Below are positions 128-62,037 of a stretch of 64,000 nucleotides of DNA, one piece after another. The DNA comes from an uncultured bacterium. GTDB lineage: Bacteria; Eisenbacteria; RBG-16-71-46; JAFGJU01. The first letter of the stretch is position 1. Each line of letters starts with the position of its first letter. The notes below the pieces were generated by a model. It worked only from the letters and a program-made list of their open reading frames with translations. It did no database searches and was not told the origin of the DNA. Location: assembly GCA_964570935.1 (NCBI GenBank), contig CAZMZP010000050.1, forward strand, positions 891-64,890. Direction: 5' to 3'. The position numbers and the translations under genes were made by a program.

Positions 128-1057
128 CTATTTGCGCTCCGTCTCCAACCCGTCCAAGTATCTGACCGCGGACACGGCGGCCGTCGCTCCGTCTCCAACT
201 GCCGTGGAGATCTGTCTCAGGCTCTTCTTCCTGACGTCTCCGGCCGCGAATACGCCGGGCACCGACGTCAGCATCTCTTCGTCCGTTATGATGTAGCCCG
301 CGCCGTCCCTGTCCACCTGTCCTGCCAGGAATTCGGAATTCGGCAGAAGCCCGACGTACAGGAACACGCCTGCCACTTCCAACCTGTCCGCAGCGCCAGT
401 CTCGACGCTGCGCACTTCCACCGCTTCGACCGACTCCGTCCCTGCTATCCGCGTCACCACGGAGCCCAGCACCGGCACAATCTTCTTCTCGCCCAGAGCC
501 CGGTCCGCGAGCACCTTCACGCCCCTGAACTCGCGCCTCCTGTGCACCAGGTACACCCGGCTACACAGCCGCGCCAGGAAAACCGCCTCCTCCAGCGCCG
601 AATCCCCCCCGCCTATGACCGCCACGGCCTCGTCCCTGAAGAAGGCACCGTCACAAGTGGCGCAATACGACACTCCCTTTCCCCGCAGCTCTCTCTCTCC
701 GGCCACCCCCAGCTCGCGCGGCCTCGCCCCCGAGGCCACGATGACGGCCCCGGCGTCGAACTGGCCTCCAGCGGTCTTCACCACGACCCGCCCTCCGCCA
801 GGGGTCAGGTTCTCGGCCTCGTCCTGCACAATCTGCGTGCCGAACTGCCTGGCCTGGGCCTCCATCCTCCTCGTAAGCTCGAACCCGGACACGGGCTCCT
901 CGAACCCCGGATAGTTCTCGACTCTGGCGGTCAGTGCGGCCTGTCCGCCCGGAGCAAGACGCTCCAGACAGCCGGCTTGCCATCCCGCTCTGGATGCGTA
1001 CAACCCGGCGGTCAGGCCCGCGGGACCCGCGCCTATGATCAGCACGTCAAATCGCAT
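128..1057 (-). CDS. trxB: thioredoxin-disulfide reductase
   Basis: 309 aa; FAD/NAD(P) dinucleotide-binding motifs (DVLIIGAGPAG, AVIGGGDSA) and redox-active CATC motif; immediately downstream of a thioredoxin gene. Confidence 0.9.
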   Translation of the reverse strand: MRFDVLIIGAGPAGLTAGLYASRAGWQAGCLERLAPGGQAALTARVENYPGFEEPVSGFELTRRMEAQARQFGTQIVQDEAENLTPGGGRVVVKTAGGQFDAGAVIVASGARPRELGVAGERELRGKGVSYCATCDGAFFRDEAVAVIGGGDSALEEAVFLARLCSRVYLVHRRREFRGVKVLADRALGEKKIVPVLGSVVTRIAGTESVEAVEVRSVETGAADRLEVAGVFLYVGLLPNSEFLAGQVDRDGAGYIITDEEMLTSVPGVFAAGDVRKKSLRQISTAVGDGATAAVSAVRYLDGLETERK

Positions 1058-1120: not shown

Positions 1121-1464
1121 TCAGGGCTTGAGGACCAGGTCGAGTCTCTTCAGGAGCTCCGACTTCGGCACGGCCCCAATGACCTGATTCACGACGCTTC
1201 CGCCCTTGAAGATAAGCAATGAGGGAATGCTTCTTATTCCATACCTGGAGGCCAGGGACTGGCTTTCGTCAACGTTCAGCTTGCAGACCTTCACCTTGCC
1301 GGCGTAATCACGCGCTATGTCGTCCACGATGGGGGCGATCATTCGACAGGGGCGCACCACTCCGCCCAGAAGTCTACCAGCACCGGAACAGCAGATTTCA
1401 AGACCTCGCTGTCGAAGTTCGCGTCCGTCACTGGCAGTGGTTTTGCCGCTTGCGTATCACCCAT
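1121..1464 (-). pseudogene. trxA: thioredoxin interrupted by an apparent 1-nt deletion inside the CGPC active-site codons
   Basis: ATG at 1464 opens [41 protein letters not shown] (stop 1339-1341); a different frame continues from 1360 as ..[52 protein letters not shown].. to stop at 1121; adding one G in the GGGGCGC run (plus strand ~1348-1354) restores WAEWCGPCRMIAP, a canonical full-length Trx. Confidence 0.7.
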
Positions 1465-1513
1465 GTTCTCCTCCGAGTTCGTCCAACTGCTTGTCCGGCA
1501 AAAGGCAAAGTCA

Positions 1514-2569
1514 CTATTCAGAATACTGACGATACCGCACGGCTCTCCGGCCTGTCAACTCGTTTATTGCCGTGTCCAGCCCCAGCGCCGGTTCCAGCGC
1601 TCCGCTCTTGATTCCCTTCTCGGTGTCGTACAGAACAGAAATCGCCCGGCACAACCCCTCCCTGTCGAACCGCCTCCTGATGGCTTCCACGTCCCTGCTC
1701 TCGGGCCAACGGAGCTCTCCTCTGGGTCTGGAGTCCCCGCCCGTCCCCTGCCCTTCCTCCTCCGAACCCCTCAGCGCGTGTCTGAAGGCCCTGTTCAGGA
1801 ACCACAGCAGGACCGTAGCCTGGCTGCCTGCCTGCAGACACCTGGCCGCAGTCACGTGAGCCGCCGCGCCGTCGCCCGCCGCGACCACGCGCCGCAGTTC
1901 GACAGCCGAACCCAGAGAAGCCGCGCCCCCGACGGCGGCCACGTCCGCGTCGGTTATTTCCTTCCGACCGCCGGTGACGGCGGAGGCCTTCTCGATCACG
2001 TTCCAGACTTCGTACGCCGAATGTCCGTACGTTTCACTCAACTGCCGCAGCAGCCCCTCACTCATGCTCCTGCCCCGGTCCCGGAGCCAGCTCATGGCCC
2101 ACGCCCGGCAATCGCCAATGTTTCCCGACCAGAACACGAACGCTCCGACTTCAGCGCTCGCCGCCGCCATCGACCTGGCCAGCGCCTCCACTCCGCGTCT
2201 CCTGCCTTCGTCCCCCGTGCCCGCGGTCATGGCCACGAGGCAGGTGCTCTTCGACGGACGCCGCGCGTACGCCGCAAGTCCGGCCATGTCGGCCTGGCCC
2301 AGAAGCTCGACGCCTATGAGGGCCACCACTCTTCTGTCCGCGAACAGCGGAGTGCTCAGGCACGCCGCCTCCACGTCCTTCCAGGAGGTGTCCGCGCCCA
2401 GGAACGACTGGCAGTTGAACTGCCTCGCCTCCGCCGGCACGAGCGCCTCCGTGAGTCTCCTCAGGGCCTCCCGCTTCAAAAACTCGTCGTTCCCGGTGAA
2501 CACGTACACGGAGGAGAACCCGCTCCTCATGCCCTGCAAAAGATCACCATATCTGCGGTCACCCTTCAC
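1514..2569 (-). CDS. holA: DNA polymerase III delta subunit
   Basis: 351 aa; N-terminal [23 protein letters not shown] clamp-loader delta signature; conserved lptE-holA neighbourhood. Confidence 0.8.
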
Positions 2570-8809: not shown

Positions 8810-9772
8810 CTAGGCTTTTACGGTAAGGCCGGCCAGGGTCCTCACTATGGTCACTACCGCCGGCCCGAGGATGACAACAAACAACGACGGAAATATGCAC
8901 AGCACCAGTGGGAACACCAGCTTCACCGGCGTTTTCGCCGCCGCCTCCTCCGCCCTCTGTCTTCTTCTCGTCCGCACCGTGTCGGCGTGCGTGCGCAGGG
9001 CCTGTGCCACGCTGGTGCCCAGCTTGTCGGTCTGCACGAGCATCGCCACCAGGGAGCTCAGTTCCTCCGCTCCCGTCCTTGTCGTCAGGTCCCGGAGCGC
9101 CTGCGCCCTGGGCTTACCCGCCTTGACCTCCTGCGTCACCTGCGCGAATTCACTGCTGAGAACGCTGCTCGTCAGCTTCATCTCGCTGGACACCCTGGCA
9201 ACGGCGGCGTCCAACCCCAGGCCCGCCTCCACGCACACGACCATTAGGTCCAGCGCGTCGGGCAGATGCCGGGTGATCTCCGCCTGCCGGCGCGAGGCCG
9301 CGTGCCGCAGCCAGTAGTCCGGCAGCAGGTATCCCCCGACGCCCACCAGGAGGCCCAGCAGCAGGATCAGGCCCGGTGAATGTCCGAGCCACGCGCCCAC
9401 CGGGATGTACAGCGCGAAAAGTATCATCGCCAGGAATATCTTGGCGCCCCGGTAGACCCTCAGGGCGTTGCTCTTGCGGTACCCGGCGTACGTAAGCAGC
9501 CTCTGTATCCTCGGCTCCGCTTTCTGTGCCTTTCCCGGCGCGAACCCTCCGACGAACTCCTTCACGGAGTCCGCGGCCGTGGACGACGCCTTCCTGGCCT
9601 TACCCAGCCACCTGCCGCGACGCCCCCCGGCCACCGGGACGACGTCGGTCAGACGGTCTATTCTCCTCTGCAGAGGGTCGGGTGCCCTGAACGCGAAGTG
9701 CAGCAGCAGGGCCGCGCACAAGCTCAGACTCAAGAAAACTAGCGCCATGATCACGGGCAAAGGTAGAAGCAT
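8810..9772 (-). CDS. tadC: Flp pilus assembly inner-membrane protein TadC (type II secretion system F family)
   Basis: 320 aa polytopic GspF-like protein; follows tadB with a 3-nt gap. Confidence 0.8.
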   Translation of the reverse strand: MLLPLPVIMALVFLSLSLCAALLLHFAFRAPDPLQRRIDRLTDVVPVAGGRRGRWLGKARKASSTAADSVKEFVGGFAPGKAQKAEPRIQRLLTYAGYRKSNALRVYRGAKIFLAMILFALYIPVGAWLGHSPGLILLLGLLVGVGGYLLPDYWLRHAASRRQAEITRHLPDALDLMVVCVEAGLGLDAAVARVSSEMKLTSSVLSSEFAQVTQEVKAGKPRAQALRDLTTRTGAEELSSLVAMLVQTDKLGTSVAQALRTHADTVRTRRRQRAEEAAAKTPVKLVFPLVLCIFPSLFVVILGPAVVTIVRTLAGLTVKA

Positions 9773-9775
9773 GTC

Positions 9776-10747
9776 CTAGACCTCTATGTTCACGATTTTA
9801 CGTATCCAGACGTACCCGATTACCATCAAGGTTCCAGCCACGCCCAGCATCAGCCGTCCGGTCGAGTCCTTGAAAAGGAACATGATGTAGCTCGGGTTGA
9901 TGAGCATGATGATGAGCCCCACTGTCACCGGCAGCAGCGCCAGCACTATCCCGGACAGCCGTGCGTCGGCGGTCAGAGACCGCATCTGGCCCAGGATCTT
10001 GAACCGCTCCCTGATTGTGTAGCTGATCTTCTCGAGGATCTCCGCCACGTTGCCGCCGGTCTCTCTCTGGATCACCATGGCAATGACGAAGAACCTCACG
10101 TCCATGCTGTCTATCCTGTCGGCCAGGTTCATCAGGGCCTCTTTGAAGCTGAGCCCCAGATTCTGTTCGTCGAAAGTCTCTTTGAACTCGGACGACACAG
10201 GGTCGGGCATCTCGTCCGCCACGAGCTGTATCGCGCCGGTGAATGCGTGGCCGGCCCTCAGAGCGCTGGTCATCAGGTCGAGGGCGTCCGGGAACTGGCT
10301 CACGAAAGACCTCACTCTCTTCCTCTTCCTCCGCACGACGTTGAGCGTCGGCAGGCAGCCCAGGGCGCCGCCGCCGACTATTGCGGATATCACGCTCCGG
10401 CCGATGAAGTAGCCGAGCCCGGAACCCGCAGCCACGAAGACCAGCGTGAACAGCAGGAGCTCGCCCACGCGCATGGGCGACTCAGCCTGCCTGAGCAGTC
10501 TGTCCAGCTTGTGCGCCAGCTTGACCTTGGACAATCCCTTGTGCAAAGCCGGGATCTGGCTCATGAGCTCGTCCCGCAGGATGCTGGCGGAGACCAAGGC
10601 CTCCCTGCCGTGTTCCTTGCTCAGGGCGCTCAGCCGTTTCCTCATCCATGCCGCGCGAGTCTCCGGCGAACCCCTCCCCGCGAGCCCCAATGAGAGAAAC
10701 AGGAATGCGACTGCGAGGAGTACCAGTACGGATACTACGATGAGCAA
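9776..10747 (-). CDS. tadB: Flp pilus assembly inner-membrane protein TadB (type II secretion system F family)
   Basis: 323 aa GspF-like platform protein directly downstream of the CpaF ATPase gene. Confidence 0.8.
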   Translation of the reverse strand: MLIVVSVLVLLAVAFLFLSLGLAGRGSPETRAAWMRKRLSALSKEHGREALVSASILRDELMSQIPALHKGLSKVKLAHKLDRLLRQAESPMRVGELLLFTLVFVAAGSGLGYFIGRSVISAIVGGGALGCLPTLNVVRRKRKRVRSFVSQFPDALDLMTSALRAGHAFTGAIQLVADEMPDPVSSEFKETFDEQNLGLSFKEALMNLADRIDSMDVRFFVIAMVIQRETGGNVAEILEKISYTIRERFKILGQMRSLTADARLSGIVLALLPVTVGLIIMLINPSYIMFLFKDSTGRLMLGVAGTLMVIGYVWIRKIVNIEV

Positions 10748-10783
10748 GTGCGTCTCCTCTCCCTGAAGATTACTCCGTGACCC

Positions 10784-12133
10784 CTAGACGTCGTCAAAGA
10801 TGCCCGGAGGAAGGTGAACTCCGGCCACGAAGAGCCTCTCGGCGAACTTGGGCCTTATGCCGGTGGGCTTGAACCTCCCCAGGACCGTGCCGTCCTCGGA
10901 CACTCCCAGACGTTCGAACACGAAGATGTCCTGCATGGTGACGACGTTGCCTTCCATGCCTACAATCTCAGCCACGTTCGTCACTCTTCTTCTTCCGTCA
11001 GTCAAACGGGCTATCTGGACTACCACGTTGAGCGCCGAAGCGATCTGCTCGCGGATGGCCTTCTCCGGGAGCTCCAGCCCGGCCATCAGAACCATGGTCT
11101 CGATACGACTCAGCGAATCGCGAGGCGTGTTCGCATGGACGGTCGTCATCGAACCGTCGTGGCCGGTGTTCATGGCCTGGAGCATGTCCAGTGCCTCGTC
11201 GCCTCTGACCTCTCCCACGATTATCCTGTCAGGCCGCATACGCAGGGCGTTCCTGACGAGGTCTCTCTGGGTGATGCGTCCCCTGCCCTCTATGTTCGGC
11301 GGCCGCGTCTCGAGCCTTACCACGTGCTCCTGCTGGAGCTGGAGCTCAGCCGCGTCCTCTATGGTCACCACTCTCTCCTCTCCGGGCACGAACCCGGACA
11401 ACACGTTCAGCAGAGTCGTCTTGCCCGCGCCGGTTCCGCCGGAGATGAGGATGTTGAGCTTCGCCTTGACGGCGCCCTTCAAGAGCTCCAGCATGGCCGG
11501 AGTCATGCTCTCGAAGGTCAACAGGTCGTTAGCGGTGAGCGGATTCGCCCCGAACCTTCGAATCGACAGCACCGGGCCGTCGATAGACAGCGGCGGGATG
11601 ATGGCATTCACTCGAGACCCGTCCGGGAGTCTCGCGTCCACCATTGGGGAGGACTCGTCCACTCTCCTTCCGACCGCGGCCACTATCCTGTCTATGATCT
11701 GCCTGACGTGGTTGTCGTCCTTGAACTTGACTCCCGTCAGCTCCAGCTTTCCGAACCTCTCGACGTACACCTGGTCGTGGCCGTTGACCAGGATGTCGGA
11801 GAGGGTCGGGTCCGCCAGAAGCGGCTCAATGGGGCCCAGCCCCAGAGTCTCGTGGACGACTTCCTCTGTGAGCTTCTCCCGGTCGGCCCTGCTCAGCGGA
11901 AGGGTCTCGCCCGCTATGATCGCCTCGAGCGCGAGCCGGACCTGCCCGCGGAGCTGGTCCTGCGGGATGGTGTCGATGGTCGCGAGGTCGAGCTTCTCGA
12001 TGAGCTTGTGATGCACTCTCGACTTCAGCTCCTGGTAGGCGTCCCTGGTCTCGGGCTCCGCCCCCCTGTACCCGAAGCGTTCCATCTTCACCTTCGGCGT
12101 CTGCTGACGCCCGAGTCTTTCGAAGAGTGCCAT
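10784..12133 (-). CDS. cpaF: Flp pilus assembly ATPase CpaF/TadA
   Basis: 449 aa; Walker [14 protein letters not shown]; type II/IV secretion NTPase motifs. Confidence 0.9.
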
Positions 12134-12136
12134 TCT

Positions 12137-13324
12137 CTACCTCCTCAGGAGCTTCGCCAGCGAGCGTTTCTTGGGGGCTTCCGCCTCGATCTCTTCCTCG
12201 GGGCCCATCCTGCACATTGCGTACGCCAGCTCGCGCAAATTCACCGTCACTGGCGACTGCGGCGCGGATTCGATCAGAGGCACCCCCGAATTGATGGAGT
12301 TGCTGACGCTCGCGTAGTCGTTCGGTATGCGCCAGAAAACGGGATACTCAAAGCTCTTCTCGAATTTCTCCACGACCACCGACTTGTTCGGTACGAACCG
12401 GTTGAGCAGGAGCTTCACTTTGTCACGGCCGTAGCCCAACCTCTGGAATATCTCTATGCACCTCTTCGAGTTTCTTATCGCCGGCAGCTCCAGGGCCGAC
12501 ACCAGGAAGATCGCGTCGGACAGGTCGAGGGTCTCCACGCATCTTTCGTCGAACGTGTGCGACGTGTCGACGATCACGTACTCGAACATCGAACGCAGCA
12601 ACCGCAGCACCTGGCCTATCTGTTCCGCCGTGATGGCCTCCGCCTCCTCGGCCTGCTGAGGCTCCGCCATGACGTACGCGCCGGACGAATGCTGGACCAT
12701 GTGCCCCCTGAGAAGAGTCTGGTCCAGTTTCTCGTAGCTCCGCGCCACGTCGGCGATGGTGTAGGTGGGCTGCACGTTGAGGAACATGGCCGCGTCGCCG
12801 AACTGGAGGTCAAGGTCCACGACCGCGGCCGACTTGCCGCAGGCCTTGGCCAGCATGACCGCCAGGTTCACCGCGAGCATCGTCGTGCCCAGCCCGCCCT
12901 TGTTGCTGAATATCGTGATTATCTCGCCCGCCACCGTGCCCTGCGTCTGGACCTTTCTCATCACCTTTCGGATGGCGGCGACGACCTCGTCCTGGTCCAG
13001 CGGGCGTTTGAGGAACTCTTGTATGCCGGACCGCATGGCCTTGAGTATCACGTCCGGCTTCGTCTCAGACGAGACGGCGAAGATAGACGCCTGCGGGTAC
13101 ACCTCCACGATCTTGGCCGCGGTCGCCAGGTGGTCCTCCGCGGGAGACGAGATTTCCAGGAACACGATGTGCGGCCTGAACTGCCTGACCAGGTTGACTC
13201 CGACGCGCAGGTCGTCCGACTCCGCGCGCACCTGAGCTCCGGGCAGCTCCCGCAGAATGTTCTTGAGCGAGTAGTGAACGTCCTTGTCGCTGTCGATTAT
13301 GACAATAGAGATTTCGTCCAGCAT
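12137..13324 (-). CDS. cpaE: Flp pilus assembly protein CpaE/TadZ (pseudo-receiver + MinD/ParA-like ATPase)
   Basis: 395 aa; N-terminal receiver-like fold with Glu (FLEIS) at the phospho-acceptor position; deviant Walker A SNKGGLGTT. Confidence 0.8.
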   Translation of the reverse strand: MLDEISIVIIDSDKDVHYSLKNILRELPGAQVRAESDDLRVGVNLVRQFRPHIVFLEISSPAEDHLATAAKIVEVYPQASIFAVSSETKPDVILKAMRSGIQEFLKRPLDQDEVVAAIRKVMRKVQTQGTVAGEIITIFSNKGGLGTTMLAVNLAVMLAKACGKSAAVVDLDLQFGDAAMFLNVQPTYTIADVARSYEKLDQTLLRGHMVQHSSGAYVMAEPQQAEEAEAITAEQIGQVLRLLRSMFEYVIVDTSHTFDERCVETLDLSDAIFLVSALELPAIRNSKRCIEIFQRLGYGRDKVKLLLNRFVPNKSVVVEKFEKSFEYPVFWRIPNDYASVSNSINSGVPLIESAPQSPVTVNLRELAYAMCRMGPEEEIEAEAPKKRSLAKLLRR

Positions 13325-13330
13325 ACTTGT

Positions 13331-14626
13331 CTATTCCACCATCTGGTATGACCACGTGAAGCTCTGGTTGCCGTCGCCGGGCTGGCTTCCCTTGACACAC
13401 GAAATGGGCGCCCGCGTAAGCCTGGCGGTTACGACGCTGTGCCTGTCAACCCCCTCTATGAAGAATGCCACTATCTTTGTCACGACGATAGTGTTCCCCC
13501 TCTCCTCCGTGAGTCTTCCGGACTCCGGCCACATTCTGGGGTCGAAGACAGGGACAAATATTATCCTGGGGCTCTCTCCTATGTTTCCGCCATCAGAGGA
13601 GTGGTCCACGTTGTCTACTTCTTCACTCCAGAACGCGTCGGGATCCTGCTCCAGGATGTCCTTGGTGCCCTGGACCGTGGGTCCGACCATGTTGCCCGGC
13701 TCGCTCTCCAGGGTGAACTCCTCATTTGGATCGATGACCGTCGGGTTGCACTTACTGATGTTTTCTCTATAAGCGGCGGCGCCGCGGCGGGCCTCGCCAT
13801 ATTCCTCAGGCCACGGCAGGACGATGGGATTGAAGAAGCTAGCAGCAGGTCTGGTTTCCTGTGCGCCGAGCTTAAGAAAGACCTGCATTCCCACATTTCC
13901 GTCCGGCGGCAAACTGGGGATGTAACCGGCCTCGTTCGCCTGCGACAACGCTCTGTCGTAGTGCTCGCTGTCGTAGACCCCGTTCCCGTTCCCGTCCGTG
14001 AACGTTTCGCCCGGATCGTAGAGTCTATTGCCGTTGGAGTCGGTGAACTTCTCGCCGTTCCACCTACCGTTGTTCTGCCACGACGATTTTCCGGTCGAGT
14101 ATCCGGGAATAGGGGTCGTGTCGTCCCAAAGATCAGGTATGGTCCAGGGCTTGACGCAGCATGCAGTCGAGCTCGGGGTCACGAGGAGGACCGCCCTGGC
14201 CGACACGTCGGCGAAGGGAATCCGCAAGATCTTGGCGAAGAAGAGCGGCAGGCCGTTGTCTCTTGACCGCAACTTGCGGGCATACACGGTGAGTCTCTTG
14301 TCGGCGATTATGATGTCTTCTGCCGGCACTATGTACACTGACTCGTCGTTGCCGGCCTTGTGCCTCCCAGCCATCTCGATCACTCTGTTGGCGACTTCGC
14401 TCGACTTGGTCGGCTCCTCCAGGATCATGGCGCCCGCCGCGGCCAGGACGCAGGCGTCAGCCGCGTTCTGGAGCTGCTGCTTGGTGACCATGATGTAGCC
14501 TATGTCCACGGCGAAGGCCGCAAGGGCCAGCATGGCTATGATGAGAAAACCTATGAGGGGCAACACGGCCCCCCGCTGCGAAAACAATAGAGTCACACCT
14601 TTACCAGACTGTCTCATTGCGCTCAC
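13331..14626 (-). CDS. TadG-like pilus-associated protein (Tad N-terminal pseudopilin-like domain)
   Basis: 431 aa; N-terminal TM plus VDIGYIMVTKQQLQNAADA motif typical of the TadE/TadG N-terminal domain; large extracytoplasmic C-terminal region. Confidence 0.7.
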   Translation of the reverse strand: MSAMRQSGKGVTLLFSQRGAVLPLIGFLIIAMLALAAFAVDIGYIMVTKQQLQNAADACVLAAAGAMILEEPTKSSEVANRVIEMAGRHKAGNDESVYIVPAEDIIIADKRLTVYARKLRSRDNGLPLFFAKILRIPFADVSARAVLLVTPSSTACCVKPWTIPDLWDDTTPIPGYSTGKSSWQNNGRWNGEKFTDSNGNRLYDPGETFTDGNGNGVYDSEHYDRALSQANEAGYIPSLPPDGNVGMQVFLKLGAQETRPAASFFNPIVLPWPEEYGEARRGAAAYRENISKCNPTVIDPNEEFTLESEPGNMVGPTVQGTKDILEQDPDAFWSEEVDNVDHSSDGGNIGESPRIIFVPVFDPRMWPESGRLTEERGNTIVVTKIVAFFIEGVDRHSVVTARLTRAPISCVKGSQPGDGNQSFTWSYQMVE

Positions 14627-15811
14627 CTACTCCTCTCCAGATGCCCTCCCGGTGCCCGGCCAGGCAGGCACATCTGATGCGCTGTACGAGCCCACGATCT
14701 TCGGCGTCACCAACAGCACCAGCTCGGTCTCGTTCTGCATGAAACTCGTGCTCTTGAACAGCAAACCGAGAATAGGGATGTCGCCGAGGATCGGGAACTT
14801 CGAAACACCCTTTGAATCCTCTCTCGTAATCAAACCGGCCACGACGAGCGTCTGGCCGTCCTTGAGCTCTACCGTGCTCTGGGCTCTTCTCGTACGAAGG
14901 GCCGGTATCGCATACCCGCCCAACACTATTCCGTTGTCCCAGTCGAGAGTGCTCACTTCGGGCTCCACCTTGAGGCTCACCACGCCCGAATCCACGACCG
15001 TGGGCGTAAACTTGAGCTGAACTCCGAATTCCTTCCACTCTATTGTCACGCTGTTTCCGCCGCCGCCGGTCTGGAGTATGGGAACCGGTATCTCGCCGCC
15101 GGCCAGAAACTCCGCCTGATGTCCGCTTATCGCAACGAGGGTGGGCTCGGCCAGCGTGTTGACGACACCCTTCTTCTCCAGTGCCTTCAAAGCCGCTTCG
15201 ACGCCGTATGACGGGTGCGCCAGAGAAAGGTACGTGGTCACGCCCGAACTCAGGGTGAGAGGGATGGTAGGCGGTGTCACCTGGCCGGCGAAGCTTCCCA
15301 CGACGGCCTCCTGGAAGTCCTCACCGAAGATTCTAGGATTGAGGTCCGTGCTCACGAAGTCGACGCCCAACTCCTTCATGGCCGTCCTGTTCACCTCGGC
15401 GAACCGGACTTTGAGCATCACCTGCTGAAACGACGTGTCGGTATGAACGACCAGGTTGTAGAAAGTGGGCCTTTCCTCGCTGTCCCATACGACCAGGCTG
15501 GTCGTGCCCGGAGCCTTTCCGTTCACCAGGAGCTGCTTGGGAGAGGCCACCATGACGTCGGCTATGGCCGGGTCCGTCACCGAAACGCGCGTGATGTTCT
15601 CAGTGAACGTGATGACCTGTGATTTACCTACGATGACCTCCATCTTGAGGAGTGCGCCCGCGGGGACGACCGCGGCCGAAACGTCGCGAGCCAGACACGG
15701 TGTCAAAAGCAGCAGGCTGGACACAACCAGCCAGGCAAGACGTCTTCTGCTAAGCATGATCGCTGTTCTCCTCCATTCCCCGGCTTCCCTGGGAGGAAAG
15801 CTGCGGGTCAA
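14627..15811 (-). CDS. cpaC: Flp pilus secretin CpaC/RcpA
   Basis: 394 aa; signal peptide; secretin domain (TLVAISGHQAEFLAGGEIPVP, ETELVLLVTPKIV). Confidence 0.85.
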   Translation of the reverse strand: MTRSFPPREAGEWRRTAIMLSRRRLAWLVVSSLLLLTPCLARDVSAAVVPAGALLKMEVIVGKSQVITFTENITRVSVTDPAIADVMVASPKQLLVNGKAPGTTSLVVWDSEERPTFYNLVVHTDTSFQQVMLKVRFAEVNRTAMKELGVDFVSTDLNPRIFGEDFQEAVVGSFAGQVTPPTIPLTLSSGVTTYLSLAHPSYGVEAALKALEKKGVVNTLAEPTLVAISGHQAEFLAGGEIPVPILQTGGGGNSVTIEWKEFGVQLKFTPTVVDSGVVSLKVEPEVSTLDWDNGIVLGGYAIPALRTRRAQSTVELKDGQTLVVAGLITREDSKGVSKFPILGDIPILGLLFKSTSFMQNETELVLLVTPKIVGSYSASDVPAWPGTGRASGEE

Positions 15812-15845
15812 AACCGCACAAGATCAGCGCATGAACTGAGTATGT

Positions 15846-16727
15846 CTATCTCGATTGAGACTTGTCTTCAAATTTCTCCTCTGTCCTCTTCGAGCCCCGG
15901 ATCACCTCGACACCGATGGTCTTCTTCTCCGGCTTCGCGGCGGGCTTCACTTCCGCCGTGGTCCTCGCGGACGGCCTCGGCCGCGTGACTCTCACCGGCG
16001 CCGCCACTCTCTGAACCGGCTCGCTCTTAGAAAGCATCTCGGCGATGGTAGTGCCCTTCGTGCCTGCTGAATCCGAGTCCGCGGGGTTCCTCAGGATCAG
16101 GTTGATCTCGCCCTCGTGAGCGCACAGAGCAAGTTTCTCCGCCTCGCTCGGGGTCACCAGGAGCGTCACCGCGGTCGACTTGAGGGGTCTTCCCTCGGTG
16201 TCCTCGATCTTCTGGTCGACGGCCAGCACAGTCAGGTTTTGAAGTACTACCTTTCCCACCTGCTCTCTGCTCAGCTCAGGTCTTATCGTCACTACTAAAT
16301 CGATCTTGGTCTCGGGCAGCACGAAGCCGGCTACCCCGGACCAGACGTTGACGGGCACGGTCATGGCCCTCATTCCCTCGGGTATCAGTATGGCCAGCCC
16401 CCTGTTCATGCCGATGGGAACCAGCTTTGTCTCGAGGAGGGCTTCGCCCGCCACGACCGGCGACTTGACGACTCTGCCGTACAGATCCTGAGGCGACGTG
16501 GAGGCTCCCGCGGGGACTATCTCAACCGGCCAGCCGACGGCCTCGACGTTCGTCTCGTCCAGGACGCTGCCGAAGGGAAGGTCCTTGATGGCCACCACTA
16601 CCGGCTGCTCTGCGATCTTCTTCTCACGGATCATCTTGTCGTACTGGGCAAGGTAGCGATAAATCGCGACCGCTGCCAGGAGCCCGAAAACGACGGCAAG
16701 AATCACAACAACCCTGATTCTGGTCAC
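15846..16727 (-). CDS. cpaB: Flp pilus assembly protein CpaB/RcpC
   Basis: 293 aa; N-terminal TM anchor; SAF/CpaB-type domain; Ala/Pro/Lys-rich C-terminal tail. Confidence 0.8.
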   Translation of the reverse strand: MTRIRVVVILAVVFGLLAAVAIYRYLAQYDKMIREKKIAEQPVVVAIKDLPFGSVLDETNVEAVGWPVEIVPAGASTSPQDLYGRVVKSPVVAGEALLETKLVPIGMNRGLAILIPEGMRAMTVPVNVWSGVAGFVLPETKIDLVVTIRPELSREQVGKVVLQNLTVLAVDQKIEDTEGRPLKSTAVTLLVTPSEAEKLALCAHEGEINLILRNPADSDSAGTKGTTIAEMLSKSEPVQRVAAPVRVTRPRPSARTTAEVKPAAKPEKKTIGVEVIRGSKRTEEKFEDKSQSR

Positions 16728-16749
16728 TTGAAAAACCTCCGTCTCAAGT

Positions 16750-17163
16750 TCAGATTTCCCGACGCATGCTGCAGGAAGCTCTCAGGGGCAGTTCGTCCAA
16801 TCTCGGGAATAGATGCGCAAAAGAGGTGTGGAACGCAACGATGACGTTGACTGTGACGGGCACCCCTATGGACGGAGTGCCTTCAAGAACCACGTTCACC
16901 TGGATGTCGTCGTCAGGGATGTGGGAATCGTAGAGGACCTCCCTGACCTTCGTCTCCACGGTACCCAGGTTGTCTTCCACGTCGGGAACTATTGCTGCGT
17001 AGCGGGCCCCGACTCTCGCGGCGCCGTTGGCGACGCCCAGAAGCATCCACGCTCTGGAGAACTCAGCCATCGCGATGATCACCAGAAAAAGCATCATCGC
17101 GACTAGAGCGAACTCGACTACTGCCGCGCCTTTGTTAGATTGTATTCTTCGCACATGTCTCAT
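16750..17163 (-). CDS. tadE: TadE-like minor pilin/pseudopilin
   Basis: Start taken at MRHVRRIQSNKGAAVVEFALV (TadE N-terminal motif); the ORF-track extension to 17256 has no support. Confidence 0.65.
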   Translation of the reverse strand: MRHVRRIQSNKGAAVVEFALVAMMLFLVIIAMAEFSRAWMLLGVANGAARVGARYAAIVPDVEDNLGTVETKVREVLYDSHIPDDDIQVNVVLEGTPSIGVPVTVNVIVAFHTSFAHLFPRLDELPLRASCSMRREI

Positions 17164-17281
17164 CACATAACCAGCTTTCCTGATGTTGCAGCGCAGACCA
17201 CAGTGTCCCCCGGACGGGTTTCGGTCCTCTCGAACGGCCCGCCCGAGGGAATTCAACTGGGTTCGGACTGTGGTCTCAGCC

Positions 17282-17452
17282 TTACGGCGTTGCGCCGAGT
17301 GCAGTCGCGATGGCCTCGAACACGCGGATAAGCTCGTCTCTGAGCAGGATTATCGCGGCGATGACGGCGATCGCAACCAGGGCTATGAGCAGCGCGTACT
17401 CGGTTATCGCAGCACCCTTGTTACCCTTGAACAGATTCTTCAGGAACCTCAT
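17282..17452 (-). CDS. flp: Flp family type IVb pilin
   Basis: 56-aa ORF absent from the ORF track: MRFLKNLFKGNKGAAITEYALLIALVAIAVIAAIILLRDELIRVFEAIATALGATP; conserved G/xxxxEY processing motif and hydrophobic core; strong SD AAAGGAGGA 8 nt upstream; heads the tad operon. Confidence 0.75.
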   Translation of the reverse strand: MRFLKNLFKGNKGAAITEYALLIALVAIAVIAAIILLRDELIRVFEAIATALGATP

Positions 17453-17552
17453 TTCTCCTGTCCTCCTTTCACACGGCCTCTAACACTTAACTAATCGGCA
17501 GCAAAACCTTCACTCCTTACGTCTTTTTCTGACAACACCTCCTTGTGCGAAC

Positions 17553-17575
17553 CGCAATCACGCCTTGGGATTGCG
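17553..17575 (-). promoter_or_regulatory. perfect inverted repeat CGCAATC-N9-GATTGCG in the flp leader
   Basis: 7-bp perfect palindrome arms seen directly; shares the GCAATC/GATTGC half-site with the palindrome at 62185-62204. Confidence 0.3.
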
Positions 17576-17682
17576 TTCCCGTGGTTGCCGCCCGCACACT
17601 ATTGTAGCGGGCGAACCGCTGTCAAGTTAATTATGCCCTCCTTCGGTTTGCCGTGGCGCGACTGTCTTCGCGGGACCCAAAA

Positions 17683-17698
17683 AGCAAACCCTATGCCA
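17683..17698 (-). promoter_or_regulatory. candidate sigma-54 (-24/-12) promoter upstream of flp
   Basis: Minus strand reads TGGCATAGGGTTTGCT versus consensus TGGCACG-N4-TTGCW; GG and GC elements correctly spaced; about 230 nt upstream of the flp ATG. Confidence 0.35.
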
Positions 17699-17943
17699 CG
17701 GCCGCGCTTTCCAGAGCCGATTTTCTAACTGATTTGAGGGTAATGTGTTGCAGGCAACGGACGGCCGCCATTGATCTCTCAAAAACCCGCCTCAGCCTCT
17801 GTTTAGCGCGGCATTTCTGTCGCACTAGAGGACAATTATGCCCTGGCGGCTCTTGATGTGCTCGCGGAATTCGAGCGGTTTCGGCGGTCGTATCTTCTTC
17901 AAGGTCAGCGAATCACACCACCACGAGCCGCCGGGCGCGGTTC

Positions 17944-18801
17944 CTACGGCAGCAGGCCGGCCTGGCGCAGGAGCTCGCGAAGGGGCGCGAACTTGAACTC
18001 TCTCAGTAGGGTGTCCAGGCGGGCGTGTGTGCGACCCAGAAAGGCGTAGTGGTTCGGCCTCTTCAGCCACGACGTCACACGGGGCTGCCCCGGGTCCAGC
18101 TCCCAGGGGTGAACGCTCACGACCGCGGGCAGGCCGCCGGCGTTCAGACGACGCACCAGGAGCGCGGTCACGGCCACCGGGAGGAGACGTAAGTATGCGC
18201 CTGAGCCGAACGGCAGGTCCAGGCGGGCCACCCGACAGGTCGACATCGGGAACTCCACCAGGGTACCCGTCGCGATCCGCCGTCTGTGCGGGCTCACGCG
18301 CTCGCCCGGGATTCCGTAGACCTTGCGCCGTATGGGGTAGATGCTGGAGTCGTACAGGTGCCCGGTCTCGCCCAGGATGTCTAGGGCCCAGAGCGTGCCG
18401 GACACGACCGAGTAATTGGAGGCCCTGAAACCCACGACCGGGGCGCCGATGATGTCCTCCAGCACTGCCTTGGTTCTTGTGACCTCCGTTCTGAAATCGT
18501 CCTGACTCATGCGGTAAACAGGCCTGTGCGACCAGCCGTGCGAGGCCACCTCGTGCCCGGCCCGGAATATGTCCCTAACGAGCCCGGGGTGTCTATCGGC
18601 GTTCCAGCCTAGGACAAAAAAGGTGCCGCGCGCGCCGCGCGCGGCAAGCAAGTCGAGCAACCTACGAGTGTTGTCTTCCAACCGGGGCTCGTAGGAGCTC
18701 CACGAGGAGTAAGGGATGATGGACTCGAAGGACCTGACCTGGAAGTAGTCCTCGACGTCCACAGAGAATGCGTTGATGACGGATGGCTTGGTGACGGGCA
18801 C
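17944..18801 (-). CDS. polysaccharide deacetylase family protein (resembles the exosortase/PEP-CTERM-locus subfamily)
   Basis: 285 aa; N-terminal FSVDVEDYFQV and NodB-type motifs (HGWSHR); cytoplasmic (no signal peptide). Confidence 0.85.
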   Translation of the reverse strand: MPVTKPSVINAFSVDVEDYFQVRSFESIIPYSSWSSYEPRLEDNTRRLLDLLAARGARGTFFVLGWNADRHPGLVRDIFRAGHEVASHGWSHRPVYRMSQDDFRTEVTRTKAVLEDIIGAPVVGFRASNYSVVSGTLWALDILGETGHLYDSSIYPIRRKVYGIPGERVSPHRRRIATGTLVEFPMSTCRVARLDLPFGSGAYLRLLPVAVTALLVRRLNAGGLPAVVSVHPWELDPGQPRVTSWLKRPNHYAFLGRTHARLDTLLREFKFAPLRELLRQAGLLP

Positions 18802-19812: not shown

Positions 19813-21198
19813 TCACAGCCTCCATATCTTTCCGGACCTCATGCCCTTGAGGGCGTTTCTGGAGTCAAATATCAGCTTCGCCCGGGAGGCGATCATGCCG
19901 TAGTCGAACGCGGTGTGCGCGGTGGTGATGACTACGCAGTCCGCTTTCTCCAGCAGCGTCGCAGTCAGAGGCTTCGACTTTATGTGGAAGCGCTCCGTCT
20001 TGAGCTCGTCTATGTGAGGGTCCGAATACCACACTTCCGCCCCCAGTGAGGTCAGCATCTGGTAGATGTCCAGGGCGGGAGATTCGCGGGAGTCGTCCAC
20101 GTCCGCCTTGTAGGCCACGCCCAGAAGCAGGATACGAGAGCCGTTGACGCTCTTCTTGACCGAGTTCAGCGCCTCGCTCACCTTTCCCACCACGTGGTAC
20201 GGCATGCTGCCGTTCACCTGGCCGGCTAGTTCGATGAAGCGAGCCTCGAACCCGCTCAGCTTGGCCTTCCACGACAGGTAGAAAGGGTCTATCGGGATGC
20301 AGTGCCCTCCCAGACCCGGTCCCGGATAAAACGGCATGAAACCGAAGGGCTTGCTGGACGCCGCTTGGATCACCTCCCACACGTCGATCTTCATCTTGTC
20401 GCACATGAGGGCCATTTCGTTGACCAGGCCTATGTTCACGCTTCTGAACGTGTTTTCGAGCAGCTTCACCATCTCCGCCACCCTGGTGGACGACACCGGT
20501 ACCACGGTCGAGAGAGTGGCCTTGTAGACTTCGGCCGCTACCCGGGTGCAGCTCTCGGTGACGCCGCCGACGACTTTAGGTATGTTGCTCGTCGTGAAGC
20601 TCCTGTTGCCGGGGTCCACTCTCTCTGGAGAGAAGCCCAGGAAAAAGTCTCTCCCGACCGTCAGTCCCGTCTCCTCCAGCATCGGGAGAATCAGCTCGTC
20701 TGTCGTGCCCGGATACGTCGTGCTCTCCAGCAGCACGAGCTGACCGGGATGCAGGTACTTCGCGATTTCACCGGCCGCGCTGACTATGCTGGAAACGTCC
20801 GGGTCGCGCGTCTTCCTGAGAGGAGTGGGAACACAGATGCTGACGCAGTCGGTATCCTGTAAAACCGAAAAATCCGTCGTCGCCGACAACCGGCCCGACC
20901 CGACCTCCCGCTTGAGCTCCGCCGCCGGAACGTCCTGTATGTAGGACTTGCCGGCGTTGACTCTGCCGACCTTTCCGGCGTCAGTGTCTATGCCTGTCAC
21001 CCTGAAGCCGGCCTTCGCGAACTCGACCGCCAGAGGCAGTCCGACGTATCCGAGGCCTATGACGGCCATGCGGGCCTTCTTCTGCACAACCTTCGTCCTG
21101 AGGCCATCGAACGTGCGTTCCTCCGGCGGAACGGCCTTAGGGTTTCTTGCCACCCTTTTCATCGTCCCTTTCCTTGTACCCGTAGTAATGGTAGTCAT
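19813..21198 (-). CDS. UDP-N-acetyl-D-glucosamine 6-dehydrogenase, TviB/WbpO family
   Basis: IGLGYVGLPLAVEF NAD-binding motif, catalytic GGHC, FFLGFSPERVDPGN; start uncertain (an ATG at 21069 would remove the overlap with the upstream gene). Confidence 0.85.
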   Translation of the reverse strand: MTTITTGTRKGTMKRVARNPKAVPPEERTFDGLRTKVVQKKARMAVIGLGYVGLPLAVEFAKAGFRVTGIDTDAGKVGRVNAGKSYIQDVPAAELKREVGSGRLSATTDFSVLQDTDCVSICVPTPLRKTRDPDVSSIVSAAGEIAKYLHPGQLVLLESTTYPGTTDELILPMLEETGLTVGRDFFLGFSPERVDPGNRSFTTSNIPKVVGGVTESCTRVAAEVYKATLSTVVPVSSTRVAEMVKLLENTFRSVNIGLVNEMALMCDKMKIDVWEVIQAASSKPFGFMPFYPGPGLGGHCIPIDPFYLSWKAKLSGFEARFIELAGQVNGSMPYHVVGKVSEALNSVKKSVNGSRILLLGVAYKADVDDSRESPALDIYQMLTSLGAEVWYSDPHIDELKTERFHIKSKPLTATLLEKADCVVITTAHTAFDYGMIASRAKLIFDSRNALKGMRSGKIWRL

Positions 21199-21907
21199 AG
21201 TAATAAGGAAGCACCTCCTCCACGTTGTTTATGACCGCCCCGAGCAGGTTCGCGCCGCCCTCACTGAGCAGCTCTCCCGCCCTGGCCACCACCTCCACCG
21301 GTGTCTTTCCCGCCATGACCACCAGTAGCACTCCGTCGCAGTTCGCGGATATGAAGAAAGCGTCGGCCACCGGCAGCACCGGGGCCGAATCTATTATCAC
21401 AAGGTCGAAGTTCGCCCTGAGCTCGGCCACGGTTGCCTTGAACGTGGACGACTCGAACAGCGCTGTGGGAACGCCTATCACTCGTCCGCTGGTGATCAAT
21501 TTCAGATTCGGCAGCTCCGTGCTCTTTATGACCGAGCTCAGAGGCACCAGTGTCCCGAGCACGTCGGACATTCCAGTGCGCTGGCTCACGCCGAACACCT
21601 CGTGCAGTCTCGGCCTTCTCAAGTCGCAGTCCACCACAATTACCTTCTTGTCCGAGTGGGCCGCCGCGCTCTGGGCCAGAAAAGCGGACGTAGTCGTCTT
21701 GCCCTCGCCTCTTCTGGCGCTGGTCACCAGCACCACGCTCAGCTTCTTCTGCGCGTTGAGCCGCGTCAGCTTCGAGTAGAGGCGGTGGAACTCCGTGGCC
21801 ACCGGTGAGTCGCCGTCGAGCTCGCTCATCGGAAGCCTGCCCACGCTTCTGACTCCCGGACGCGGGCGGGGTCGATCAGTGTCGTTCAAGATTTCCAGCT
21901 TCCTCAT
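21137..21907 (-). CDS. polysaccharide tyrosine autokinase, cytoplasmic ATPase component of a split BY-kinase (CapB-like)
   Basis: Start MRKLEILN at 21907 (ATGA overlap with upstream stop); Walker A ARRGEGKTT; C-terminal tyrosine cluster YYYDYHYYGY. Confidence 0.8.
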   Translation of the reverse strand: MRKLEILNDTDRPRPRPGVRSVGRLPMSELDGDSPVATEFHRLYSKLTRLNAQKKLSVVLVTSARRGEGKTTTSAFLAQSAAAHSDKKVIVVDCDLRRPRLHEVFGVSQRTGMSDVLGTLVPLSSVIKSTELPNLKLITSGRVIGVPTALFESSTFKATVAELRANFDLVIIDSAPVLPVADAFFISANCDGVLLVVMAGKTPVEVVARAGELLSEGGANLLGAVINNVEEVLPYYYDYHYYGYKERDDEKGGKKP

Positions 21908-23559
21908 TGCGTCGTGGCCGTCCCTTCGCTCCGGCCGGTCACGCCGGCCGCTTCGATACCCTGGTCGGCCCTGCCGGTGGCGCTCATGATGGGCCCGTGA
22001 GCCAGATGCGCAGTGACGGCGATCAGCACCGCCGCCAGCAGGGAGACGTATGGCCACTTTCTCCTTTGTACGGGATGCCAGAACTCGCTGCCCGGCATCC
22101 TGGGTATGGTCCCCAGCACCGGCAGCCCGAGCCCCTTCGACAGGTGGTCCACCGACCTCACGGTGTTGTCCATGTACTCCGCCAGAACCGCGAATGAAAG
22201 CCCCAGAAAAGGCCCCAGTATGAAAGCCAACAGCAGTATCCTCTGCTTTCTCGGACCGGCCGGTCCGAACGGCCTCGCCGGCGGCTCTATGATCTCTATT
22301 CTGACGCCCAGGTTCGTCGACTGCGCCGCCTCGGAAATCTGCGCTGACGTCATCTGCGACCTGAGAGACTGAAGCACGTTCCTGTTCTCGGCGACCTCCT
22401 CCTCCAGCCTCGCCAGTTCCACCTCGTCCTGCGGTCTGCTCACCAGCGAACGCCCGTAGCTGGAGACCTGACCGGACAGTGCGGTCCTTCTCGCCTTCAA
22501 CGAATTCGCGACGTGCTCGTCGTACACTACCTCCGTGACCAGCGACTGGAGTGCGGCGGGCGAACCAGTCAGAGTCGTGGCCGCGACTTCCTCTATTCTG
22601 GCAAGCAAAGCATCACGTGACTGCCCGATTCTGTCCTTCGCCGCCGTCGTGGACCCCGCCTCCACGAGCGCCGGCGCAGCCAACTCCTCTTCCCTGACGA
22701 GCTGAGAATACGCCGACCTTATCGAATTGCTCCTGACCAGAGTCGTGGGGTCGATCTCGTTCGGGTAGTTTCTCCTGATGTTATCCCTGGCCGCGGCGGC
22801 CCTTGATGACAGGGCACCTGCCTCCTGGTCCGCCTCCCTGATAAGGCTCCTGCCCCTCTCGATGCTCCTGTCGTAACCACCCCCGTCGCTCGCGGCCATG
22901 CGGGTCTTCACGCGCTTCAACTGTGACTCGCTGTCCCTCAGTTTCTGCTCGTAGGCCGGGAGCTGGTCCTGGCTGAACGAGCCGGCGGCCCGTATGTCAA
23001 CCAGCTGGCCCTTCGTCACGAACTCGACGAAGGACTTCGTGATGCCGTCCGCGAGCAGATAGACCATGTCGCGGTCCGGATGCGTGAAAGTTATCTTGAA
23101 TAGGTCGGGGTCGGTCTCCTCGACCTTTATGTTCTTTCTCAGCCTCTCGGCTATGATTCGCGCTTTCAGCTCTTCGGCGCTCGCTCCACCGGCGTTCGTC
23201 GCTTCCAGCTTGCGCGCCGCCTTCCCCGTCAAGTCAAGGTCCAGCTTGCGGGCCACCTCCTGCAGGAAAACCCTCCCCTTCAACCTCGCCTCGATCTGTC
23301 CCAGCCTCTCATCGTCCCTCGTCCTGTACTCCGGCTTCTGGACCATCATCTTTTCCATGTCGCCGGCAAACGGCATCTTCTGCTCGTAAAGCACCACGCT
23401 GGTGGCCTCGTACTGGGAAGGCACGAAACTGAGAGCCACGACTGCCGCGCACGGCACGATGACGACCGGCAGCAGGACGAGCTCCGCCCTCCTCTTCACT
23501 GCTCTGAGGTACCGCAGGGCTTCCGCCCCTGGTGATGATGCTTCGTACGAACCGGGCAT
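21904..23559 (-). CDS. polysaccharide chain-length determinant / co-polymerase (Wzz/PCP family), membrane activator half of the split BY-kinase
   Basis: 551 aa; two TM segments flanking a long coiled-coil periplasmic region; translationally coupled to the CapB-like ATPase. Confidence 0.75.
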   Translation of the reverse strand: MPGSYEASSPGAEALRYLRAVKRRAELVLLPVVIVPCAAVVALSFVPSQYEATSVVLYEQKMPFAGDMEKMMVQKPEYRTRDDERLGQIEARLKGRVFLQEVARKLDLDLTGKAARKLEATNAGGASAEELKARIIAERLRKNIKVEETDPDLFKITFTHPDRDMVYLLADGITKSFVEFVTKGQLVDIRAAGSFSQDQLPAYEQKLRDSESQLKRVKTRMAASDGGGYDRSIERGRSLIREADQEAGALSSRAAAARDNIRRNYPNEIDPTTLVRSNSIRSAYSQLVREEELAAPALVEAGSTTAAKDRIGQSRDALLARIEEVAATTLTGSPAALQSLVTEVVYDEHVANSLKARRTALSGQVSSYGRSLVSRPQDEVELARLEEEVAENRNVLQSLRSQMTSAQISEAAQSTNLGVRIEIIEPPARPFGPAGPRKQRILLLAFILGPFLGLSFAVLAEYMDNTVRSVDHLSKGLGLPVLGTIPRMPGSEFWHPVQRRKWPYVSLLAAVLIAVTAHLAHGPIMSATGRADQGIEAAGVTGRSEGTATTQ

Positions 23560-23598
23560 GATGTCCTTTCGCGAGCTGCGCCGGACAGCCGTCCGGGC

Positions 23599-59703: not shown

Positions 59704-61995
59704 CTACGATGCGGTCTGTCCGTCCACGCTTCCGGTGATGAGGAGAGAGGCTTTTCTCAGGTCGCAGATGTCCTTGGGCCAGTATACCTGGACTGCCTTG
59801 AACTGGAGCTCCGGCGCCGGAGAGACGTATCTCACCGCGCCCAGCCGCCGCAGAAGGTCGTCTACTCTCCGGAGTATGGCGCCCCCCTCTCTGGGGGTCT
59901 GGGGGGAAATCACTACGAAGGTCGCCTCGCCGGTTCTGCCGACGATGTCCACCTCCCGGATGGTCTTCCTGAGTCCGCCGGAGAACTCCTCCAGGAACGC
60001 GGCTCTCCACTGGTCTCCGAGCCTCTGGAAGGCCCCGGTGAGTCCTTCGACTTCAAACACAGTGATGCAGAACCCTATCCCGTACCGGTCGTACCGCTTG
60101 GATTCCTCGTTTATTCTGGTGAGCAGCGTCTGCGCGCCGAGCAGGCCCGTTTCCCGGTCGGTCTCTCCGTACTGCTGGGCCTGCATGGACACGAACGCCC
60201 GTTCCAGGCCGTGAGCCGAGTATCCGCAGAAAGACCTGAAGAGCTCGCTCTCGGTCTCGTTGAACGACGGCGCGCCGCCCTCCTTCAGCCGGAGCAGGAC
60301 GCAGGCGCCCAGGCACCTCGTGCCGGCTCTCAACGGCCCCGCCAAGAACGACGTGACTCCCAGTCTTTCAAGTTCGAGGTTCAGGGTCTCGTCGGCCGCC
60401 TCACCCGAGATGCAGTTCATGTCCTTGACGCATTCGGCCATGAGAAGCTCCTTGGCTTTGGTCAGCCTCTCCGTCTCCTCCATGCCCTCGGTGCCGCCCA
60501 GTTTGTCCACCGACCAGCTTCTGCCGTCCTCGCACGCCACCAGACACGCGTCCGCCTTGAGGATCCTGACTCCCTCACTGGCTATGATCCTGACCACTTC
60601 CTCGACCTTCTGCGCGGACATCAGAGACGAGGCCACCCGGTTCAGCTCCGACAGCGCTTCCGCCTGTTCCCGCAGGCCGAGCATCGAGACTTCCCTGCCC
60701 AGCTCCTTTCCTATGAACCGCGCCACTCTGTCGAAGGCGCCCAGATAAGCTTCCAACTCGACGTTGCTGACGCGCACTGAGTCGAACACCAGCAGACCGT
60801 GCCAGCGGTCGGCCTTCATCGGGACGCATATGATGCCGAGCTCTTCGCCCTCCATCGAGGGCGCGACAATCCCGCCGGGAAGCAGCACCTGCGCCTTCCC
60901 GGACGTCAGGGCTCGGCCCAGGAATCCCTTTCCGCCGAATATGACTCCGGGAAGCGCCGGGTCGGCCACCTTGACCGACGTCGCGTACAGGACCAACCGT
61001 CCGTCCCTCCACTTGTCCGGCAGGTAGACGTAGCAGTCCCCTTCCACCCTCTCGGCCAGTGACGCGGCCAGGAACTGCACCTTCTCCGGGAACGAAACCT
61101 CCCTGATGAGCGCGTCCTCGGCGGCCTCTCTCAGAGTGAATTCGAGCGTCTTGTTCGTCACCGCGCTGTACTGCAGCGCCCTTTGCAGCGTCTCCGTCAC
61201 TCGCTCGGCCAGCTTCTCCAGCAGATGGAGGTCCTTGGCGTGGAATCTCTGCGGGTCTCTGATGCTGCTCACGTTGAGCACGCCGATGGTGCGGCCGCCC
61301 GCGACCAGAGGAACACACATCGCCGCTTTGACTTCACTCCTATCCCTTCCGGGCTTGAGAAGCTCGTTACCGGGTTCACCGGAAATGAGCATTGGTTTTC
61401 CGTCCCTGGCCACCCTGCCCGCAATCCCCTCTCCCATACTCTGCCGGGTGGAGACCACGGTCTCTCTACTCAGCCCCTGCGCGACCGCAATGCGCAGGTC
61501 CTTGCCCTTCTCGTCCAGCAGCATTATGGACCCGCACTGAGCTCCCGTGCATTCGATGGCAAGCTCCAGGATCCATCTCAGCAGCTTCTGCCTGTCTAGG
61601 GCAAGACTCAGGCTGTCGGCCAGTTTGCCCAGTACGTTGGATTCCTCCTCCCCCAGCGCCGGCTCGCAAACGGCCTGCGGCTCGGCCGCCGGTTTGGCCC
61701 CCAGGGCTTCTGCGGGTGTCAGAACCATGACGCCCGGGCCCAGCACTTCAACCAGAAGGGGTCTCGAATCGGGGTCGCCCAGGACCACTGCGTCCAGTTC
61801 CACCGAACCCAGCGCGGGCACGCTTGTCGTGGTAGGAAGCCTCATTATCTCACCGACCTTCAAAGCCACGGACGCCGCGTCCTGATCAGCAATCAGAACC
61901 AGCTCCCAGCGGCCGTCCTTGACGAGTGCCGGGATGAGGTCGAGGTCGGCCTCTTTGAGGCCGACTATGGCGAGTCTCTTTTTGTTATTGTCCAT
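59704..61995 (-). CDS. multi-GAF protein with degenerate GGDEF domain retaining the RxxD I-site (candidate c-di-GMP receptor)
   Basis: Start MDNNKKRLAIVG at 61995; the track start at 62049 would bury a sigma-54 promoter in the CDS; three GAF domains; C-terminal GGDEF-like domain with REVDIVGRTGEATF (compare PleD RESDVVARYGGEEF). Confidence 0.75.
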   Translation of the reverse strand: MDNNKKRLAIVGLKEADLDLIPALVKDGRWELVLIADQDAASVALKVGEIMRLPTTTSVPALGSVELDAVVLGDPDSRPLLVEVLGPGVMVLTPAEALGAKPAAEPQAVCEPALGEEESNVLGKLADSLSLALDRQKLLRWILELAIECTGAQCGSIMLLDEKGKDLRIAVAQGLSRETVVSTRQSMGEGIAGRVARDGKPMLISGEPGNELLKPGRDRSEVKAAMCVPLVAGGRTIGVLNVSSIRDPQRFHAKDLHLLEKLAERVTETLQRALQYSAVTNKTLEFTLREAAEDALIREVSFPEKVQFLAASLAERVEGDCYVYLPDKWRDGRLVLYATSVKVADPALPGVIFGGKGFLGRALTSGKAQVLLPGGIVAPSMEGEELGIICVPMKADRWHGLLVFDSVRVSNVELEAYLGAFDRVARFIGKELGREVSMLGLREQAEALSELNRVASSLMSAQKVEEVVRIIASEGVRILKADACLVACEDGRSWSVDKLGGTEGMEETERLTKAKELLMAECVKDMNCISGEAADETLNLELERLGVTSFLAGPLRAGTRCLGACVLLRLKEGGAPSFNETESELFRSFCGYSAHGLERAFVSMQAQQYGETDRETGLLGAQTLLTRINEESKRYDRYGIGFCITVFEVEGLTGAFQRLGDQWRAAFLEEFSGGLRKTIREVDIVGRTGEATFVVISPQTPREGGAILRRVDDLLRRLGAVRYVSPAPELQFKAVQVYWPKDICDLRKASLLITGSVDGQTAS

Positions 61996-62037
61996 TACCA
62001 AGCGCCCAAGAGGGACTTTGACACAAGCTCCCCACTG

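Follow-up and report, generated by a model that had tools for sequence, protein, structure and literature searches.

The canonical bacterial thioredoxin 1 (TrxA, for example that of E. coli) has the active site WCGPC, in which the first variable residue of the CxPC motif is thought to tune the redox potential. A second motif, CAPC, is found in the Trx domain of thioredoxin-fold proteins such as YbbN/CnoX of Xylella fastidiosa and Pseudomonas aeruginosa, which also have a TPR domain. The CAPC proteins of this type reduced DTNB and supported peroxiredoxin (PMC10998233), and CAPC can therefore be considered a redox-active variant.

The gene described here comes from a metagenome-assembled genome of Candidatus Eisenbacteria, and in the public record it is broken by a 1-nt deletion inside its active-site codons. 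When the missing base is put back, the encoded protein is like TrxA in its length of 114 aa, in its WCxPC active site, in having the conserved RSIP segment (which we take to hold the cis-proline), and in its trxB neighbour. It differs from canonical TrxA in that the intact allele has WCAPC. It thus has the same CAPC dithiol motif as YbbN/CnoX, but is a single-domain thioredoxin. We argue below that the loss of one C is probably a consensus or assembly error, or else a minority variant that was picked by the assembler.

Organization of the locus

The window (the whole stretch of DNA that was analysed, 64,000 nucleotides) contains about 55 genes, and a GC3 frame plot combined with Pfam matches places essentially every one of them (1-64000) on the minus strand. 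On the plus strand, runs of C exceed runs of G by 2- to 7-fold, depending on the run length. The features that matter for the thioredoxin gene are as follows.

128..1057, minus strand: trxB, intact, encoding a thioredoxin-disulfide reductase of 309 aa (359.1 bits with TIGR01292, cut-off 343.45)
1121..1464, minus strand: thioredoxin (trxA-type) gene, 344 nt, one base short of the 345 nt (114 codons and stop) of the intact gene
1121..1342, minus strand: C-terminal fragment in the -1 frame, 73 aa to ...LKP, with ATG at 1342-1340 and stop at 1123-1121
1339..1464, minus strand: N-terminal fragment ORF, with ATG at 1464, 41 aa to ...WAEWCAPVE, and TGA stop at 1341-1339
1349..1352, unstranded: indel site, GGGG on the plus strand and CCCC on the coding strand, with five in the intact allele
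1468..1474, minus strand: Shine-Dalgarno-like GGAGGAG, read from the sequence, 3 nt before the thioredoxin ATG
1514..2569, minus strand: holA, DNA polymerase III delta subunit, upstream neighbour of the thioredoxin gene
1529..1558, minus strand: candidate promoter ahead of the thioredoxin gene, within the 3' end of holA, with TTGACA and TATCGT separated by 18 nt

The first frame of the thioredoxin gene (1464..1121) ends in ...WAEWCAPVE*, and the remainder of the protein is encoded in the -1 (= +2) frame. At the break the coding strand reads TGG TGC GCC CCT GTC GAA TGA. The 41-aa N-terminal fragment contains only the first of the two active-site Cys residues, and as the window stands there is no CxxC dithiol active site: the sequence is WCAPV-E-stop, with the second Cys codon out of frame. 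The premature stop and the ATG of Met42 share bases in the sequence ATGA (1339-1342, minus strand).

The two fragments match consecutive positions of the Pfam Thioredoxin profile PF00085, namely 3-32 (E = 1.1e-8) and 32-101 (E = 7.9e-18) of 103, so that the resemblance to thioredoxin is not due to chance. The coding sequence of the domain in the window changes frame at profile position 32. The reading frames and the split matches bear out the original prediction, made from the sequence, that the halves of a thioredoxin lie in different frames with a 1-nt frameshift inside the active-site codons. Its further statement that the downstream trxB looks intact agrees with the TIGR01292 match, which is above the cut-off. 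The gene has the genomic partner expected of a thioredoxin, since trxB starts 63 nt downstream on the same strand.

The expression signals of the thioredoxin gene (ribosome-binding site and start codon) are intact. The sigma-70-like candidate promoter agrees with the consensus at 10 of 12 positions, where 0.1 sites would be expected by chance, and is a consensus match only; from its position within the 3' end of holA, it may be an own promoter for trx-trxB.

Elsewhere in the window, a Tad/Flp-type pilus cluster was seen at 8810-17349 (minus strand), consisting of two T2SSF proteins, a T2SSE ATPase, and response-regulator/ParA-like, TadG-like, secretin, RcpC/CpaB and TadE-like proteins. Between the TadE-like gene and a polysaccharide deacetylase gene, at 17200-17980, the frame plot indicates no stable coding frame; this region could hold small genes such as that for a Flp pilin, or be non-coding. 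A large GAF-domain protein is encoded at 59704-62208 (minus strand). Its match to GGDEF is weak and partial (profile positions 3-110 of 161, 25.8 bits), and this part of the protein may be a degenerate diguanylate cyclase domain.

The repaired protein

Insertion of one base at the junction gives a protein of 114 aa. This protein matches PF00085 over positions 3-101 of 103 with 114.2 bits (cut-off 23.5, E = 3.4e-33), and matches TIGR01068 with 129.7 bits against a cut-off of 96.8, as a full-length thioredoxin should. It also matches thioredoxins of the PDB, for example the reconstructed ancestral protein 2yj7, at E = 4e-41. On sequence grounds the assignment to the thioredoxin family is unambiguous.

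An intact allele in independent sequence

HolA was used as an anchor for retrieving independent contigs and relatives. An exact look-up of the HolA protein retrieved a contig of 1,685 bp (L001) from the Logan assembly of run ERR4334728, which on blastn and alignment matches window 2736-1053 with a single gap and no mismatches. The only difference is in the run of C residues, which is CCCCC (C5) in L001 and CCCC (C4) in the window. The thioredoxin gene in L001 is uninterrupted and encodes 114 aa (WAEWCAPCRMIAP), with TGC GCC CCC TGT giving WCAPC, so that the CxxC feature would be present. Because L001 is one C longer in this run, the base that is missing in the window belongs to the C5 homopolymer, and the natural active site is CAPC. 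Beyond the missing C, nothing else in the thioredoxin gene is changed relative to the intact allele.

The result from L001 bears on the original prediction in two ways. The proposal there was that an extra G would restore a perfect 114-aa protein with WCGPC; the frame is indeed restored by one base, but the natural allele has an extra C and hence WCAPC. It had also named, as the finding that would overturn a broken gene, an independent sequence with an extra base and an intact ORF, and this is in substance what L001 is. The indel is absent from independent sequence of the same population, and the length of the homopolymer is the sole difference, as would be looked for in an artefact.

Over the 9,322 bp of the window for which runs ERR4334727 and ERR4334728 provide independent Logan contigs (five in all), there are 3 mismatches, and the thioredoxin indel is the sole indel. 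These runs serve as an independent comparison, and need not be the source reads of the genome.

In a collection of 15 billion proteins the intact protein is present, while the broken allele is present only as the 73-aa fragment of the NCBI record itself; neither the 41-aa fragment nor a 79-aa fragment is found in that collection. No match across the break was obtained when the metagenome collection was scanned for the exact pattern with either 4 or 5 bases in the run. A gene-position index contained no exact match to TrxB, to a sigma-54 regulator, or to the 73-aa and 79-aa fragments. In the public NCBI record, whose contig of 81,387 bp includes the window, the 73-aa C-terminal fragment (MIAPIVDD...) has been annotated as a protein, apparently in error.

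Relatives and the CxPC motif

All the relatives examined (61-96% identity) have an uninterrupted thioredoxin gene, encoding about 107-136 aa, in the same gene order, and a frameshift was seen in none of them. The nearest GTDB species representative is another metagenome-assembled genome of Candidatus Eisenbacteria (L002), with a HolA that is 69% identical. Its genes are in the order LptE-holA-trx-trxB, and its 114-aa thioredoxin is intact, with WCMPC. The order holA-trx-trxB is common to this genome and to L004-L013. A relative with CGPC is represented by 10 contigs; the gene is in frame in all of them (GGG CCC TGT), and has the same neighbourhood.

CAPC is the commonest motif in the closest relatives: it is the majority form within the 90%-identity cluster that contains the intact protein, where CGPC and CMPC each occur in some members. 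The best 120 homologues have CGPC in 93 cases, CAPC in 24, CMPC in 2 and GGPC in 1. CAPC was present in 6 of 80 metagenome loci among the matches listed by a protein-guided scan, which are generic thioredoxins with identities of 50-65%.

The first variable residue of CxPC (window 1347-1358, minus strand) differs, as CAPC, CGPC or CMPC, even among very close relatives whose proteins are 87-96% identical (L001, L002, L004-L013, P0001-P0007 and P0123-P0133). This position appears to evolve unusually fast in this lineage.

In relatives (L004-L007), trxB is followed by a thioredoxin-fold/TPR (DsbH-like) protein of 247-276 aa, and then by leuS. A second thioredoxin-fold gene is probably located just past the low-coordinate end of the window.

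Soundness of the assembly

The 54 other minus-strand stop-to-stop ORFs of the window, which include one alternative frame of an already covered region, were scanned with Pfam. Matches were obtained for 47 of them and none for the remaining 7, and the domain matches are mostly full length. No family is split across two frames among these 54 ORFs, and no other thioredoxin (PF00085) was found among them. An ENA contig of 16.4 kb that is 97.5% identical (L014) has no net indel against the window. Since there are no split families and no net indel against this contig, the assembly is generally sound, and the thioredoxin indel is an isolated one-base event.

Several candidates for further indels were considered and rejected. 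The gaps in the alignment with L014 are compensating pairs or lie in non-coding sequence. ORF overlaps of 100-370 nt had suggested further frameshifts at plsY/gpsA, ymdB/folD, xseA/xseB/ispA, pheS/pheT and GNVR/BY-kinase, but each of the ORFs has its own domain match, mostly full length; long overlaps of this kind are the usual off-frame extensions in a genome of 63% G+C. The GNVR (Wzz-like) and BY-kinase-like P-loop ORFs (21137-23598, minus strand), which are in different frames and share a large stop-to-stop overlap, were looked at as a possible second frameshift. The ATG of the kinase at 21907 overlaps the upstream TGA as ATGA, and they form a normal coupled pair.

Origin of the deletion

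The original prediction listed a pseudogene, a homopolymer error and a recoding site as three readings, and chose none of them. The intact allele in L001 favours a homopolymer error or minor variant, while recoding finds no support from the heptamer, the fold, Rfam or the relatives.

We regard the gene as an ordinary cytoplasmic trxA-type thioredoxin gene with WCAPC, in the conserved order holA-trx-trxB. In the record it is one C short in the C5 homopolymer, with GCC CCT GT in place of GCC CCC TGT, so that the frame shifts after Cys-Ala-Pro and a new stop follows three codons on. We propose that the C was lost through a consensus or assembly error, or through the choice of a minority variant by the assembler. 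The population would then carry an intact and functional thioredoxin gene, with no regulation or recoding involved, and the deletion would be an artefact or a rare variant that is not fixed in the organism.

This explanation is favoured because the intact allele occurs in essentially identical DNA, because the broken allele is found in this one record only, and because the gene is a conserved housekeeping gene beside an intact reductase. Random errors should affect housekeeping genes as often as any others, whereas fixed null mutations should rarely do so. Two points count against it. The comparisons, over about 25 kb, revealed no further indel, which implies a low general rate of indel errors and makes a single error uncommon a priori. 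Moreover, five C residues are few for the classic type of homopolymer error in Illumina reads.

The main alternative, which we consider rather unlikely, is a genuine and very recent null allele, i.e. an incipient pseudogene. A replication slip in the C5 run would have lost one C in the lineage that was binned, and the cell would live without this thioredoxin by means of paralogues or other reductants encoded elsewhere. The frameshift is after all unambiguous in the record, the assembly is otherwise clean with errors rare in the window, and short homopolymers are natural hotspots for indels. The assemblies that carry the two alleles also differ at 3 other sites in 9.3 kb, and so need not be from the same clone. 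Against this, the gene is intact, conserved and in the same order in every relative examined, the trxB directly downstream is intact, and an intact allele exists in near-identical DNA. The 54 other ORFs of the window offer no back-up PF00085 gene. There is also no second lesion or decay in the other 343 nt, although at 3 differences in 9.3 kb none would be expected, and this observation implies only that any null allele is recent.

A programmed recoding site, or a split thioredoxin, is very improbable. In the first version, the peptidyl-tRNA(Pro) would slip by -1 from CCU to CCC, restoring WCAPC-RMIAP. The geometry allows such a slip of a single tRNA, and its product would be exactly the intact protein. 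However, the zero-frame codons TGC GCC CCT GTC contain no X XXY YYZ heptamer, and the tRNA on the Ala codon GCC would find no matching codon in the -1 frame (CGC), which leaves only the single-tRNA slip as conceivable. A stimulatory structure is also lacking: the 93 nt from the site onward have a predicted folding energy of -22.5 kcal/mol, where shuffled sequences average -24.96 (z = +0.78) and 156 of 200 of them fold as well, and the first 23 nt are unpaired in the predicted fold. There is no relevant Rfam match. Nor is the frameshift conserved, all relatives and the near-identical allele having the gene in a single frame, and transcriptional slippage would require a run much longer than 4 C.

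In the second version, translation would stop at the TGA and reinitiate at the overlapping ATG (ATGA), giving fragments of 41 and 73 aa that associate non-covalently. The fragments of E. coli thioredoxin cleaved at Met37 reportedly associate in this way, and in the alignment, the ATG overlapped here by the premature TGA falls at the position of the Met in KMIAP of the E. coli protein. Set against this, the second active-site Cys codon is destroyed (CAPV), so that the resolving cysteine is in neither fragment and no dithiol active site could form; and there is no Shine-Dalgarno sequence before the internal ATG. That the allele with four G is real and expressed, through low-level -1 slippage of tRNA-Pro on CCC-CU or through ATGA reinitiation to give two fragments that reassemble as a monothiol (CAPV) thioredoxin-like complex, is hardly credible.

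If the artefact reading is true, the 73-aa fragment in the record stands where the organism makes a normal 114-aa thioredoxin. In this lineage, where the active site is WCAPC, repair of the gene to the canonical WCGPC would bring in a wrong residue. The locus is of small biological weight, and its practical lesson is one for annotation. A real deletion, on the other hand, would make the gene another young pseudogene, and even modest interest would then depend on the organism having no other thioredoxin.

Comparison with known frameshifts

Programmed -1 frameshifting, as in dnaX and IS elements, is similar in that a -1 shift would be needed here too, and the Pro-tRNA could re-pair from CCU to CCC. 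The heptamer, the stimulatory structure, the conservation and an evidently useful alternative product are all absent from this locus. Phase-variable loci have a long homopolymer tract, typically of 7 nt or more, with frequent on/off variants in length. The tract in the thioredoxin gene is only 4 or 5 nt and is not conserved, the relatives having GGG CCC or ATG CCG at this point.

The locus resembles the homopolymer frameshifts of draft and metagenome-assembled genomes, whether these are assembly or sequencing indels or young pseudogenes. It has the same change in length by a single base with no further lesion, and the allele found in near-identical DNA is intact. There is no novelty in this, as the family, the minor active-site variant and the class of defect are all known. 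The locus does not differ in kind from other homopolymer frameshifts in draft genomes; it is notable only in that the indel falls inside the codons of the active site.
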